Source of the DNA: Enterobacteria phage ID18 | Sequence record: NC_007856.1 | Length of the DNA stretch: 5,486 nt | Direction: 5' to 3' (one strand) | Shown here: in pieces, positions 59 through 5,486 of the stretch | How the letters are laid out: each line of letters begins with the position of its first letter | Position numbering within the stretch: the first letter of the stretch is position 1 | The notes under the pieces: model-generated | What the model was told of the DNA's origin: nothing | The model's database searches: none | The model's input: only the letters and a program-made list of their open reading frames with translations | Program-made: the position numbers and the translations under genes

Positions 59-1729
59 ATGCAACAACACTTAACCGCTTCGGACTTCTACCGCAAACCA
101 ATAATCGACGCTATCAAACCTCTTGTCGAAACTGCTGGTATGTCTGTGCTAACTCAATCTCCTAACCTCCGTATCTGGAAACAGTGCAACACTCGCGTAA
201 AACTGCTGGAAGAAATTCTAAATCATTACACTAACGGTATTCGCCGTGATGATAATGGTGACTTCTTTCTCAACCCTGAATGCCAACTCGCCACTACAAT
301 TGCTTATCGTGCTCACAAAAAGGGCCATAACCCTCGCTTTAAACAATACCCTGAGTCATTCACTCTGGACGATATTATTACTGGCAAACCAATTCCTCAG
401 ACTGCCCCTTCTGAGCTTCAACTTACTGATGAAATCGGTGAGGATTACCGCCTTACTGTACTCTCCATAATCGAAGAGTTAGACGAATGCTACAACGTGC
501 TCGGACAACTTGATATTAATAACACTATAGACCACAAACCTATCGGTAACGCCAAATGGGACTTAATGTATGAAAAACCTGTCTATAAACACTGGTATGA
601 ACTGGTATCAAAACGACCCCTTAAATCAATCAGAGAGGACTACAACTATGCAAAGGCTAAGGGTACTAAAGATGAGTGCTCGAAAATCCTTGAGGAATCC
701 ACCATGAAATCCCGCCGTGGCTTTACCGTTCAGAGATTGATGAATGCTATGCGTACTGCCCACACTGATGGCTGGTATGTTGTATTCGATACTCTCACCT
801 TAGCTGATGATCGTATTAAGGACTTCTATGCTAACCCCAATGCTCTTCGTGACTATTTCCGTGATATTGGCCGTATGGTTCTCACTGCCGAGGGTCGTTC
901 GGTCCATGATTCATCTTCGGACTGCTATCAGTACTTTTGTGTGCCTGAGTATGGCACCCAGCATGGCCGTTTACACTTTCACGCAGTGCATCTTATGCGC
1001 ACACTTCCTTTGGGTTCTCTCGACCCTAACTTTGGTAAGCTGGTGCGTACTAATCGGCAAATAAATAGCTTGCAAAACACATGGCCTTATGGTTACTCTA
1101 TGCCCATCGCAGTCCGGTATTCTCAGGATGCTTTCTCTCGCGCTGGATGGCTCTGGCCTGTCGATACAAAGGGTGAACCCCTTAAATCCACCTCGTATAT
1201 GGCTGTAGGCTTCTACGTTGCTAAATACGTTAATAAAAAATCTGATGTTGACATAGCCGCAAAAGGCTTAGGGAATCAAAAATGGAACGCTACATTAAAA
1301 ACGCAGATGGCTCTTTTACCAAAGAAACTATTTCGAATTCGAATGAGCCGCAACTTCGGGATGAAACTACTCCCAATGACGACGCTGACCGCGGAGTGTT
1401 TAATCCAACTGACCCAAGTGGGTTACGACGTGACCCCGTTCAACAACATCTTGAAGCAGAACGCCAAGAAAGAGCTACGATTGAGGCTGGCAAAGCAATC
1501 TGTAGCCGACGTTTTGGAGGCGCAACCTGTGACGACCAATCTGCTAAAATTCATGCGCAATTTGACCCGAACAATCGGAGCGTCCAGCCTACAGAGTTTT
1601 ATCGCTTCAATGACGCAGAAATTAGCAAATACGGATATTTCTGATGAAACTAAAAACTACGTTACTAATGCAGGAATTGCTGTTGCTGACTTACGACTTA
1701 AATCGAAGTGGACTGCTGGTGGAAAATGA
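59..1729 (+). CDS. A: Replication initiation protein A (rolling-circle HUH endonuclease; viral-strand nickase/ligase)
   Basis: Long ORF (frame 2) strongly similar along its C-terminal two thirds to phiX174 protein A as recalled. HUH motif HFHAVH is encoded at about 974-991 and the catalytic YVAKY tyrosines at 1214-1228. Start placed at ATG 59, which has a GGAGG Shine-Dalgarno at 45-49 with 9-nt spacing; the track's ATG at 29 has none. Stop TGA at 1727-1729. Confidence 0.85.
506..535 (+). other. Viral (+) strand origin of rolling-circle replication (30-nt ori core, protein A nick site)
   Basis: Sequence CAACTTGATATTAATAACACTATAGACCAC is identical to the conserved phiX174/G4 origin 30-mer as recalled. 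Protein A is expected to nick between G512 and A513. It lies inside gene A, as in all phiX-like phages. Confidence 0.85.
704..1729 (+). CDS. A*: Protein A* (in-frame internal initiation product of gene A; 341 aa)
   Basis: In-frame ATG at 704 encoding MKSRRGF..., the same N-terminus as phiX174 A*, preceded by GAGG at 692-695. The predicted length of 341 aa equals the phiX174 A* length as recalled. Expression is inferred by homology. Confidence 0.65.
1070..1099 (+). promoter_or_regulatory. Candidate promoter pB (inside gene A, upstream of gene B)
   Basis: -35-like TTGCAA at 1070-1075 and a weak -10-like TACTCT at 1094-1099 (18-nt spacer), about 180 nt upstream of the B start. Position and sequence resemble the phiX174 region TTGCAAAATACGTGGCCTTATGGTTACAGT. 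Weak -10, so low confidence. Confidence 0.3.
1282..1644 (+). CDS. B: Internal scaffolding protein B (120 aa), encoded entirely within gene A in a different frame
   Basis: 120-aa ORF in frame 1 nested in A. The product has the conserved [20 protein letters not shown] and EFYRF...GYF C-terminal motifs of phiX174 protein B. Stop TGA at 1642-1644. Confidence 0.9.
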
Positions 1730-1814
1730 AGAACTTCAATCTCAACTTAAAGAACTCGAGGGCGTCTTACTTCGCAACCTTTCGCCATCATCTCAACGTG
1801 GTAGCAAAGACTGA
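1644..1814 (+). CDS. K: Protein K (56 aa; small membrane-associated protein modulating burst size)
   Basis: Not in the ORF track (short). ATG at 1644-1646 overlaps the B stop (TGATG). Hand translation gives [56 protein letters not shown] (56 aa), closely matching phiX174 K (QELLLLVYELNRSGLLAENE). Frame 0, overlapping the end of A and the start of C; stop TGA at 1812-1814. Confidence 0.8.
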
Positions 1815-1995
1815 CGCGCTTGATGAAGAAAAATGGCTCAATATGATGGGCGCTCTTCTTAAGGACTGGTTCCGCTATGAACAACATTTCGTACATGGCA
1901 AAGAATCAATGCTTGACATTCTAAATGAACGTGGCCTATTATCCACCTTGCCAAATGGCTTAACTTACAAAGGAATCAAAAATGAAAGCAAATGA
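1726..1995 (+). CDS. C: Protein C (89 aa; switches stage II to stage III DNA synthesis and assists ssDNA packaging)
   Basis: ATG at 1726-1728 overlaps the A stop TGA at 1727-1729 (ATGA). The product [21 protein letters not shown]...[13 protein letters not shown]...[13 protein letters not shown] matches phiX174 protein C. The track ORF 1708..1995 begins at an upstream GTG and is probably over-extended. Confidence 0.85.
1913..1942 (+). promoter_or_regulatory. Candidate promoter pD (inside gene C, driving D-E-J-F-G-H)
   Basis: Perfect -35 TTGACA at 1913-1918 and -10 TATTAT at 1937-1942 with an 18-nt spacer, about 40 nt upstream of the D start. The homologous phiX174 sequence GCTTGACATTTTAAAAGAGCGTGGATTACTATC is the known pD location. 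Confidence 0.55.
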
Positions 1996-2443
1996 GAACG
2001 CAGTAGCCTTTCAAACCGCTATTGCCTCCATCAAACTTATTCAGGCATCTTCTGTTCTTGACCTGACTGAGGACGATTTCGAATTCTTAACTCGTGACCG
2101 TGTATGGATTGCAACTGACCGCTCCCGTGCTCGCCGCGCTATTGAGGCTTGCGTTTATGGAACTCTGGACTTTGTGGGATACCCTCGCTTTCCTGCTCCT
2201 ATTGAGTTTATTGCTGCCGTCATTGCTTATTATGTTCATCCCGTTAACATTCAAACGGCATGTCTTATTATGGAAGGCGCTGAATTCACCGAAAACATCA
2301 TTAATGGTGTCGATGCCCCGGTTAAAGCCGCTGAACTCTTCGCGTTTACCTTGCGTGTACGCGCCGGAAACACTGAGCTTATTACTTACGCAGAAAACAA
2401 TGCGCGTGAAAAACTGCGCGCTCAAGGAGTGATGGATGTCTAA
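1982..2443 (+). CDS. D: External scaffolding protein D (153 aa)
   Basis: ORF with AAGGA at 1970-1974 about 7 nt before the ATG. The product is nearly collinear with phiX174 protein D (FQTAIASIKLIQAS..VLDLTEDDF, YGTLDFVGYPRFPAP, IAAVIAYYVHPVNIQTACLIMEGAEFTENIINGV). The start overlaps the C stop at 1993-1995. Confidence 0.92.
   Translation: MKANENAVAFQTAIASIKLIQASSVLDLTEDDFEFLTRDRVWIATDRSRARRAIEACVYGTLDFVGYPRFPAPIEFIAAVIAYYVHPVNIQTACLIMEGAEFTENIINGVDAPVKAAELFAFTLRVRAGNTELITYAENNAREKLRAQGVMDV
2157..2432 (+). CDS. E: Lysis protein E (91 aa; single-gene lysis, MraY inhibitor), nested in gene D in the +1 frame
   Basis: ATG at 2157 with GAGG at 2144-2147. The product MELWTLWDTLAFLLLLSLLLPSLLIMFIP... 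has the hydrophobic N-terminal transmembrane segment with the conserved Pro21 and the ...RLPCVYA... C-terminal region of phiX174 E. The track ORF starts at an upstream GTG (2094) and is over-extended. Confidence 0.85.
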   Translation: MELWTLWDTLAFLLLLSLLLPSLLIMFIPLTFKRHVLLWKALNSPKTSLMVSMPRLKPLNSSRLPCVYAPETLSLLLTQKTMRVKNCALKE

Positions 2444-2516
2444 AAAATCTATTCGCCGCTCTGGTGGCAAATCTAAAGGTGCTCGCCTCTGGTATGTTGG
2501 CGGCACACAATTCTAA
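2436..2516 (+). CDS. J: DNA-binding/packaging protein J (26 aa; small basic core protein)
   Basis: Not in the ORF track (short). AGGAG at 2425-2429, 6 nt before ATG 2436. Hand translation gives MSKKSIRRSGGKSKGARLWYVGGTQF (26 aa), highly basic with the C-terminus GARLWYVGG.QF shared with phiX174 J. The short length is G4-like (phiX174 J is 38 aa). Stop TAA at 2514-2516. Confidence 0.8.
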   Translation: MSKKSIRRSGGKSKGARLWYVGGTQF

Positions 2517-2555: not shown

Positions 2556-3836
2556 ATGTCTAACGTACAAACTTCCGCTGAACGTATTCCGCATGACCTC
2601 TCACATCTGGTATTCGAAGCTGGTAAAATCGGACGCCTTAAAACTATCTCCTGGACTCCTGTTGTCGCTGGTGATTCTTACGAAACTGAAATGGTAGGCG
2701 CTATTCGTCTTTCTCCTCTCCGTCGTGGTCTGGCTGTCGACTCTCGCGTCGACGTCTTTACTTTCTATATCCCTCATCGTCATGTCTATGGTCAACAATG
2801 GATTGACTTTATGAAGACTGGCGTTAACGCTACTCCTCTGGCTCCGGTAACTTGTTCCTCTGGCTGGGATTCTGCTGCCTATCTTGGCACTATCCCGTCA
2901 ACTAATTTGAAGGTTCCTAAATTCCTTCATCAATCTTATCTCAATATTTACAACAACTACTTTAAGCCGCCGTGGTCTAATGACCTCACCTATGCTAACC
3001 CATCTAATATGCCCGCTGAGGATTACAAATGGGGCGTTCGTGTCGCTAACTTAAAATCTATCTGGACCGCGCCCCTTCCTCCTGATTCATTAACTAAGCA
3101 GGATATGACTACTGGCGCTACCACTATCGATATTATGGGCCTACAAGCTGCCTATGCTAAACTCCACACTGAACAGGAACGTGACTATTTCATGACTCGC
3201 TACCGCGATATTATGAAAGACTTTGGCGGTCACACCTCCTACGACGGTGATAACCGTCCTCTGCTCCTGATGCGCTCTGAATTTTGGGCCTCTGGCTATG
3301 ACGTCGACGGTACTGACCAAACTTCATTGGGTCAGTTCTCTGGTCGCGTCCAACAAACCTTTAATCATAAAGTGCCTCGCTTCTATGTTCCTGAGCATGG
3401 CGTAATTATGACTTTATCTGTTACTCGCTTCCCTCCTACTCACGAAATGGAAATGCACTATCTCGTCGGTAAGGAATCTCTGACTTATACTGACATTGCC
3501 TGTGACCCTGCTCTTATGGCTAACCTGCCTCCGCGTGAAATTGAGGTAAAAGACCTCTTTCACTCTGCTGGTACTGGTAAATTCAAAATTGCCGAAGGTC
3601 AATGGTATCGTACTCAGCCTGACCGCGTTGCCTTCCCTTATAACGCTCTTGACGGCTTCCCTTTCTATTCTGAACTGCCGTCTAATGATATTCTCGAACG
3701 TGTACTTGTTCGAACTGATAACTATGATGAAATCTTCCAGTCTATGCAACTTGCACACTGGAACATGCAAACTAAATTTAACACTACTGTATATCGTCAT
3801 ATGCCTACCACTCGTGATGGCATCATGACGTCATAA
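2556..3836 (+). CDS. F: Major capsid protein F (426 aa)
   Basis: AAGGA at 2545-2549, 6 nt before the ATG. The product is collinear with phiX174 F along its full length (MSN.QT.AER.PHDLSHL, RLSPLRRGLA.DS, IDIMGLQAAYA.LHT.QERDYFM.RY, GTDQTSLGQFSGRVQQT, LPPREI, FKIAEGQWYR, TTRD.IMTS). Confidence 0.95.
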   Translation: MSNVQTSAERIPHDLSHLVFEAGKIGRLKTISWTPVVAGDSYETEMVGAIRLSPLRRGLAVDSRVDVFTFYIPHRHVYGQQWIDFMKTGVNATPLAPVTCSSGWDSAAYLGTIPSTNLKVPKFLHQSYLNIYNNYFKPPWSNDLTYANPSNMPAEDYKWGVRVANLKSIWTAPLPPDSLTKQDMTTGATTIDIMGLQAAYAKLHTEQERDYFMTRYRDIMKDFGGHTSYDGDNRPLLLMRSEFWASGYDVDGTDQTSLGQFSGRVQQTFNHKVPRFYVPEHGVIMTLSVTRFPPTHEMEMHYLVGKESLTYTDIACDPALMANLPPREIEVKDLFHSAGTGKFKIAEGQWYRTQPDRVAFPYNALDGFPFYSELPSNDILERVLVRTDNYDEIFQSMQLAHWNMQTKFNTTVYRHMPTTRDGIMTS

Positions 3837-3928: not shown

Positions 3929-4462
3929 ATGTTTCAAACTTATCTCTCTAAACATAATTCTCCGTTAACTTCTCTGTCTATTACTGCTACAAAAACACCT
4001 GCGGCTGCTGCTCCGATTATTTCTACACCGGAGCTTAGCCGCTCTACTATTTTCGCTGGCTTAACTCTGACTGCTGCCACTACTCATTCTGGTGTCGCTC
4101 ATGTCGTTCGTATTGACGAAACCAATCCTACTGACAATCAGGTCTTATCGGTCGCCGCTTCTTTATCTGGCGTACCGTCTGATGCTATTGCTATTGCTAT
4201 TCGCTTTGAGGTCGCTGACGGTACCGTCCCTACTGCTCTCCCTGCTCTCTACTCTGCTTATCCGGTGGAATTCTTCACTTCTGGCGCTGCTCTGTCTTGT
4301 AAGGATGCCGTATCTATTCCGACGCATCCTGTTACTGCTGGTAATGATGTATATGCTGGTATTCTTATCTGGTCCAAATCTTGGTCCGCTGGTGTCGTCT
4401 CCGGCCTCTTATCTGTTAATCAGGTAAACCGTGAAACTACCGTACTCCAACCTCTTAAATAA
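3929..4462 (+). CDS. G: Major spike protein G (177 aa)
   Basis: ATG at 3929 preceded by TAAGGA at 3916-3921. The product begins MFQTYLSKHNS (phiX174 G begins MFQTFISRHNS) and ends ...SLNQVNRETTVLQPLK (phiX174 ...SLNQVIKEIICLQPLK). The track ORF starts at an upstream TTG (3884) and is over-extended. Confidence 0.88.
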   Translation: MFQTYLSKHNSPLTSLSITATKTPAAAAPIISTPELSRSTIFAGLTLTAATTHSGVAHVVRIDETNPTDNQVLSVAASLSGVPSDAIAIAIRFEVADGTVPTALPALYSAYPVEFFTSGAALSCKDAVSIPTHPVTAGNDVYAGILIWSKSWSAGVVSGLLSVNQVNRETTVLQPLK

Positions 4463-4472
4463 GGTCTAATCT

Positions 4473-5486
4473 ATGTTCGGTGCAATCGCTGGCGGTATCG
4501 CCTCCTCTCTCGCTGGTGGACTCCTGAACAAAGCATTCGGGGGCGGTTCTTCCGCTCCCCAATCTGGCGTTCAAGGTAATGTCCTCGCTACTGACAATAA
4601 TGTAATCGGTGCTAATGATGCTGGTATCAAATCCGCTATTCAGGGTTCTAATCCTCCCAATGGTCAACAAGCTGCTCCCAATGCTATATCGGGCGTTCTT
4701 GCCGATACTGGCAAAGACGCCCTATCTTCAATCACTGGCGCTGGCGTTAATAAACTTATGGAAAAAATCGGACTCTCTAAAGATGCTGCTGCTAAAGGTA
4801 AGGATACGAAAGATTATCTTGCTTCTGCGTTCCCCGAACTCAACCCGTGGGAACGTGCTGGCGCTGGTGCTTCTTCTGCTGGAATGGTTGATGCGGGATT
4901 CCAAAACCAAAAGGAATTAACTCGCATGCAGCTTGACAATCAAAAAGAAATCGCTAAGATGCAAAACGACACTCAAAAGGATATCGCTGGTATCCAGTCT
5001 GTTACTTCTCGGCAAAATACTAAGGACTCTGTGTATGCTCAAAACGAAATGCTCCAATACAACCAAAAAGAATCTATGTCACGCGTTGGCGCTATTCTCG
5101 AAAACACAAGCCTCACCAAACAACAACAAACTTCTGAAATTATGCGGCAAATGCTTACTCAGGCTCAAACCTCAGGTCAACACTTTACAAATGACCAAAT
5201 CCAAGAACTTACTCGAAAGGTCGGCGCTGATATTGATGCTGTTCGTGCTAACACTGAACGTACACATGTAGAAACGGACCGCTCTAAGCAGGAGGTCCAA
5301 AACTCTCGTTACGCTTCCTCACAAGTCGGTAAAACCGCCAAGGATGTATCAAATGTCATTAGTGACGCATCTTCTGGTATTGTTGATTATTTTCGTGGCG
5401 TTGATAAAGCTGTCGCGGATACTTGGAACAATTATTTCAAAGATGGCAAATCGGATGGGATAAGCTCAAACCATCGTACCAAATAA
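4473..5486 (+). CDS. H: Minor spike / DNA pilot protein H (337 aa)
   Basis: AAGG at 4461-4464, 8 nt before the ATG. The product is collinear with phiX174 H ([132 protein letters not shown]). Stop TAA is the last three bases of the window. Confidence 0.93.

Follow-up and report, generated by a model that had tools for sequence, protein, structure and literature searches.

A probable G4-clade counterpart of the phiX174 promoter pB inside gene A of Enterobacteria phage ID18

Does the sequence TTGCAA-18-TACTCT, located within gene A of Enterobacteria phage ID18 (sequence record NC_007856.1), represent a promoter of gene B and the genes that follow it? The original prediction placed here, at positions 1070-1099, a weak candidate for the promoter that is known as pB in phage phiX174, and the sequence confirmed both hexamers and the 18-nt spacer at these positions (Table 1). 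The window, i.e., the whole stretch of DNA that was analyzed, is a complete G4-like microvirus genome of 5486 nt (Bullavirinae, Gequatrovirus). It showed 98.4% identity to coliphage WA14 (DQ079909) over the full length and 97.5% identity to EMCL318, and the sequence IMGVR_UViG_638275834_000001 was identical to it across the 2026 compared bases. Gene coordinates were taken from the WA14 annotation, whose positions are the same in the window. The results described below indicate that the site is probably the G4-clade orthologue of phiX174 pB, namely a sigma-70 promoter that lies within the coding sequence (CDS) of gene A/A*. It is an ordinary element of a textbook kind in the expected place, and elements of this type are already known.

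To evaluate the relationship of the site with phiX174 pB, the two genomes were compared using BLAST. An ungapped match was found between window positions 963-1288 and phiX174 positions 4756-5081, so that the window coordinate equals the phiX174 coordinate minus 3793. The promoter pB of phiX174 has been tabulated at 4863..4899 (PMC11527146), and in the NC_001422 record, position 4899 is annotated as a "transcription start site". Since the offset of 3793 holds without gaps, phiX174 pB corresponds to window positions 1070..1106. In this alignment, TTGCAA falls on phiX174 positions 4863-4868, where the hexamer is identical, and TACTCT falls on TACAGT at 4887-4892. Table S1 of Logel & Jaschke assigns the sequence TTAAATAGCTTGCAAAATACGTGGCCTTATGGTTACAGTATGCCC to pB2 of Sanger 1977, and the core of this sequence to pB of Sorensen 1998. 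Thus, the site, which had been described as homologous to the phiX174 pB region, is its exact positional counterpart. The proposed distance of about 180 nt upstream of gene B agrees with the 183 nt that separate the end of the -10 hexamer from the B ATG (position 1282). The interval of 1100-1115 given for the start includes A1106, which is the counterpart of the phiX174 start base 4899.

In phiX174, the promoter is active in vivo. RNA sequencing revealed a 2.0-2.5-fold step-up in transcripts at pB, and a 6.4-fold step-up determined by quantitative PCR is attributed to Zhao 2012 by a source that cites this work. [quoted passage not shown] As for the ID18 site, its architecture is that of a sigma-70 promoter: the spacer of 18 nt lies within the range of 16-18 bp, a purine (A1106) is located 7 nt after the -10 hexamer, the TTG triplet of the -35 hexamer is intact and the second and sixth positions of the -10 hexamer are A and T, respectively.

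Conservation of the site was analyzed in a set of 17 G4-like genomes, whose gene A is 81-98% identical to that of the window; the analysis covered the part of gene A that does not overlap other genes. TTGCAA-18-TACTCT was found in all 17 genomes. The same hexamers and spacing, with identical flanks, are present in G4, ID2, ID11, WA3, NC2, ID12, WA5, NC13, NC19, ID41, NC6, PJNS002, WA14, EMCL318 and IMG/VR contigs, and G4 and other members of Gequatrovirus deviate from the window solely by synonymous changes, which are located in the spacer or further downstream. TTGCAA was also invariant in both phiX-like genomes, and Leu and Gln codons elsewhere vary. The scans of IMG/VR using protein A revealed only five G4-like contigs, one of which was identical to the window. 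In laboratory-evolved clones of ID11, mutations are located at window positions 1003 and 1033, outside the promoter.

This invariance was compared with the general behavior of gene A, in which 61% of the degenerate codons with an invariant amino acid show synonymous variation. Codons 1034 and 1040-1048 were variable, and they are followed by eight codons (1052-1075) that cover the A-rich block and the -35 hexamer and were all invariant. The informative spacer codons 1076, 1079 and 1085 were variable again, the four codons 1088-1099, which include TATGGT and the -10 hexamer, were invariant and the informative codons at 1103-1135 all varied. Such a pattern of 8 invariant, 3 free and 4 invariant codons was found only at the pB site within the gene and arose in 29 of 20,000 label permutations. 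The choice of the four hexamer codons was dictated a priori by the phiX174 coordinates, and the probability of their joint invariance given the amino acids was P = 0.016. For all twelve invariant codons, the joint P was 6e-6, with block boundaries picked post hoc, after the data had been seen. These results provide moderate support for a synonymous constraint on the promoter bases beyond the requirements of the protein.

The run 1052-1073 was the second-longest invariant run in the analyzed part of gene A. The longest one (497-533) presumably holds the viral-strand replication origin recognized by protein A; the region 497-540 (44 nt) was invariant in ten G4-like genomes, with codons that were unchanged in all 17, and formed the top peak of synonymous conservation in comparison with phiX174. 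Other short runs of nucleotide or synonymous invariance were found in the gene A of G4-like phages at 164-184, 641-657 and 905-926 (+ strand), and they have no obvious explanation.

Other possible causes of the invariance were considered. Folding of the region 1040-1130 was poorer than that of shuffled sequences, with z = +1.35 for RNA and z = +1.74 for DNA, so that a structure was not supported as the cause, and no Rfam match was found in the window. Overlapping open reading frames (ORFs) of the + strand (1081-1176 and 1089-1208) were rejected because the invariant upstream block lies outside them and the codons past 1103 vary freely. The - strand ORFs 971-1075 and 979-1080 were rejected as well.

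The strength of the motif was estimated using a simple sigma-70 position-weight matrix with approximate textbook base frequencies, as well as a consensus scan with a cut-off of 4/6 for the -10 hexamer. The site has 7/12 consensus matches; its score is 7.0 bits, which is rank 25 on the + strand. With the same matrix, phiX174 pB reaches 9.7 bits and rank 7 in the phiX174 genome. The -10 hexamer had been called weak in the original prediction, and this assessment holds: TACTCT matches the consensus at 3/6 positions vs. 4/6 for TACAGT of phiX174. The motif by itself cannot carry the promoter claim; it is the positional homology together with the synonymous-site invariance, and not the motif score, that exceeds chance.

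A number of results weigh against a promoter at this position. On the + strand, 25 sites were at least as good as the pB site, and 23.9 +/- 4.9 were obtained in 100 dinucleotide-preserving shuffles, i.e., the motif is not above chance; in the consensus scan, the site was below the threshold and hence unlisted. The 16 residues of protein A that are encoded by the promoter region are the same in the two clades, and because they are fully conserved, they account for most of the nucleotide conservation in the region. When codons of conserved degenerate amino acids were compared with phiX174 in 13-codon windows, 8/11 were identical at the promoter vs. a background of 0.52 elsewhere in the non-overlapping part of gene A; this is rank 102 of 346 and is not significant. 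The footprint tests within the G4-like group are based on few codons from related genomes and ignore phylogenetic non-independence. The synonymous change of TAC to TAT, which would improve the -10 hexamer, was never seen, and thus nothing points to selection for promoter strength. The literature search revealed no study in which transcripts of a G4-like phage had been mapped. The chance-level score, the -10 hexamer poorer than that of phiX174, the identical amino acid sequence and the non-significant test between clades all suit a non-functional look-alike that is kept for protein A only, with gene B transcribed by read-through from pA or from another start. The alpha3 clade adds to this, as it has no such hexamers at the pB position (TTCCGT ... 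TTCACG), and therefore a promoter at this position is not universal in the subfamily. However, a mere look-alike seems unlikely to us: the hexamer codons are synonymously invariant in 17 genomes and their neighbors are nearly all variable, the invariant and variable blocks follow the anatomy of a promoter whereas protein conservation is uniform over the stretch, and the phiX174 homologue, which has the same -35 hexamer and spacer, is active.

It is also conceivable, albeit highly improbable, that the true promoter of gene B is located elsewhere upstream, and three places come into consideration: a homologue of Sanger's pB1 (~1020-1049), a homologue of the sigma-32-like site of Zhao 2012 (~1158-1194) and the site 804-832. 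Several alternative positions of pB have indeed been proposed for phiX174 (Table S1 of Logel & Jaschke; Zhao 2012), and the best candidate of alpha3, TTGACA-17-CAGAGT, is located 93 nt before the B ATG and is the third-best site in its genome. However, the window contains a degraded version of pB1, with TCGACC (1020-1025) instead of TTGACC and TGCGTA instead of TACGCA, so that A-11 is lost, and the position aligned with the Zhao site and the alpha3 candidate reads TCGATA ... AAATCC and is outside the five best sites within 500 nt upstream of B. The site 804-832 (CTGATG-17-TATGCT) scores 7.5 bits vs. 7.0 bits for the pB site, but its hexamers differ in G4 and ID2, and we know of no mapped start at this site, phiX174 included. 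Another possibility concerns the type of promoter rather than its place, namely a sigma-32 promoter that overlaps pB and makes the expression of gene B temperature-responsive, as proposed for phiX174 pB. Sigma-32 promoters contain CTTGAAA-like and CCCCATNT-like boxes, usually ~13-17 nt apart; the sequence that overlaps pB is largely unchanged in the window, but CTTGCAA (1069-1075) and GCCCATCG (1102-1109; GCCCAT) are separated by 26 nt, which is too far for this spacing. For phiX174, gene B mRNA was 85% higher at 42 °C and sigma-32-like motifs overlapping pB were conserved in 16 phiX-clade phages, although the authors themselves call the similarity to the consensus low (Zhao et al. 2012). A sigma-32 promoter at this place is thus quite improbable, and it would be compatible with sigma-70 use.

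The site 804-832 has counterparts: a promoter-like site is located ~450 nt upstream of gene B in three lineages, at 804-832 in the window, 801-829 in G4 and 4597-4625 in phiX174, with differing hexamers. In phiX174 it reads CTGACG-17-TATGAT and takes rank 5 in the genome, above pB. The site lies within a conserved 10-residue region of protein A. As for the alpha3 candidate, which is a strong one, it occupies positions 1684-1712 of the alpha3 genome (L012), is also present in ID62, NC28 and St-1, and aligns with the downstream "PB" site of Zhao 2012. Like pB, it is predicted to serve gene B and the genes after it from an internal start in gene A. Unlike pB, it is located ~90 nt further downstream and has other hexamers, in a clade without TTGCAA/TACNNT at the pB position. 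The absence of the pB hexamers together with this candidate further downstream suggests that the position of the gene B promoter may have shifted within the subfamily (promoter turnover).

The sole difference in the -10 hexamer between the G4-like and phiX-like clades is caused by the codon 1097-1099, which is Ser TCT in all G4-like genomes and Ser AGT in the phiX-like ones. This switch changes positions -9 and -8, and T-12, A-11 and T-7 are kept in both clades. The same codon is Thr ACG in the alpha3 clade and Thr ACT in a divergent metagenomic relative (L023), and TCT and AGT are each one step from ACT. Thus, the -10 hexamer tolerated a switch of the Ser codon family (AGT/TCT) while the critical T-7 stayed.

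If the site is the orthologue of pB, the following course of transcription can be proposed. The host sigma-70 RNA polymerase would bind TTGCAA and TACTCT, 18 bp apart, on the double-stranded replicative form, the DNA would be opened at the -10 hexamer, where A-11 and T-7 are kept, and initiation would occur at approximately A1106. Both the initiation by polymerase in G4-like phages and the exact start base are predicted here. The transcript would consist of the leader, gene B and then K, C, D, E, J, F, G and H, all of which are located downstream of gene B on a common strand, and it would be thinned at leaky terminators, as in phiX174. The pB messages, which would cover B and the later genes, may add to read-through from pA, as in phiX174. 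The poorer -10 hexamer suggests that the promoter could be somewhat weaker than phiX174 pB.

The A-rich block adjoining the -35 hexamer (Table 1) is frozen synonymously in the G4 clade but different in phiX174, where it is not conserved and reads CGCCGCCAGTTAAATAGC. The proximal UP-element consensus is AAAAAARNR, and positions 1060-1068 (AATAAATAG) match it at 7/9 positions. It can be speculated that the block 1052-1069 compensates for the degenerate -10 hexamer, either as a UP-element-like contact for the alpha subunit of the polymerase or as a site for a host factor, but we regard this as rather doubtful. If true, gene B and the genes after it would depend on such a factor or on the growth rate for their expression, in a clade-specific manner.

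Table 1. Coordinates of the predicted pB elements, genes and homologous promoters in the ID18 window.
Feature	Position	Strand	Basis or description
A-rich block AATCGGCAAATAAATAGC	1052..1069	+	-54 to -37, adjoins the -35 hexamer; six informative codons, all invariant in 17 genomes
-35 hexamer TTGCAA	1070..1075	+	4/6 vs. TTGACA; TTG triplet intact
18-nt spacer	1076..1093	+	5' part variable; 3' part TATGGT (-18 to -13, G at -14) invariant
-10 hexamer TACTCT	1094..1099	+	3/6 vs. TATAAT; T-12, A-11 and T-7 kept
Discriminator ATGCCC	1100..1105	+	one variant: CCC to CCA in NC19
Predicted transcription start, A of ATCGCAG	1106..1106	+	predicted by homology; aligns with phiX174 4899
Predicted pB transcript leader, 176 nt	1106..1281	+	inside gene A; 1282 - 1106 = 176
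Gene A	59..1729	+	WA14 annotation, translation, codon alignment; CDS that hosts the promoter
Gene A*	704-1729	+	WA14 annotation
Gene B (internal scaffolding protein)	1282..1644	+	ORF list, WA14 annotation; first gene that the promoter would serve
Gene K	1644-1814	+	WA14 annotation
Gene C	1726-1995	+	WA14 annotation
Gene D	1982-2443	+	WA14 annotation
Gene E	2157-2432	+	WA14 annotation
Gene J	2436-2516	+	WA14 annotation
Gene F	2556-3836	+	WA14 annotation
Gene G	3929-4462	+	WA14 annotation
Gene H	4473-5486	+	WA14 annotation
pA homologue/T_H	4-56, wrapping from 5486	+	TTGACT 4-9, TAACAT 25-30, then hairpin and T-run 31-56
pD homologue	1913-1942	+	TTGACA-18-TATTAT, 11/12 consensus; best promoter match of the window

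Within gene A, the pB site is located between the HUH motif (LHFHAVH, ~972-995) and the motif with the catalytic tyrosine (YVAKYVNK, ~1215-1238). The hexamers of the pA homologue are followed by the hairpin GCCTCCAAATCAACGGAGGC at 31-50 (GCCTCC...GGAGGC), which adjoins TAACAT and precedes the T-run, and the pA/T_H region of the window aligns with the overlap of pA and T_H in phiX174. In the same part of the genome, an in-frame ATG at position 29 extends the reading frame of gene A 5' of the annotated start at 59. The pD homologue is located inside gene C, where ~40 nt separate it from the ATG of gene D (1982), and aligns with phiX174 pD (TTGACA-18-TACTAT). Thus, pA and pD both occupy phiX174-homologous positions in the window, which favors the assignment of the site at 1070-1099 to pB.

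A metagenome scan with a clade-specific 22-mer revealed two contigs, both of which were unrelated to microviruses. The contig L041 (Ga0134122_10106970), a 2.2-kb metagenome contig with a high GC content, contains at 1606-1632 an exact 27-nt match to window positions 1435-1461, which encode PFNNILKQ. The match is longer than the 22-mer query, and the contig is otherwise unrelated to the window. A spacer of a CRISPR (clustered regularly interspaced short palindromic repeats) array was ruled out as an explanation because no flanking repeats were present.

For annotation, the value of the analysis is that pB can be placed at 1070-1099 and its predicted start at 1106; promoter features are absent from the GenBank records of G4-like phages. 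The promoters were reportedly aligned already in the comparison of G4 and phiX174 by Godson and colleagues in 1978. The understanding of microvirus transcription is unchanged. On a small scale, the site illustrates cleanly how a regulatory signal can be contained in a protein-coding sequence, in which the synonymous sites of the -35 and -10 hexamers are frozen and the spacer drifts.

A comparison with phiX174 pB showed that the ID18 site has the same place inside gene A/A* without gaps, and the TTGCAA hexamer, the ATGCCC discriminator and the ATCGCAG start sequence are identical. Both phages have a spacer of 18 nt and a leader of 176 nt up to the B ATG (for phiX174, 5075 - 4899). The sites differ in the -10 hexamer, which is TACAGT in phiX174 vs. 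TACTCT in the window, with 4/6 positions shared (TAC..T), and in the score, which is ~2.6 bits lower for the window site with the simple matrix. In addition, the 12 nt that precede AAATAGC are not the same, with a higher A content in the window. The activity of phiX174 pB has been measured, whereas that of the G4-clade site is predicted. Like pB, the promoter pD of phiX174 and its homologue in the window belong to the sigma-70 type, are embedded in a coding sequence (gene C), have a spacer of 18 nt and keep their position between the clades. However, the pD homologue is near-consensus and the pB site is weak.

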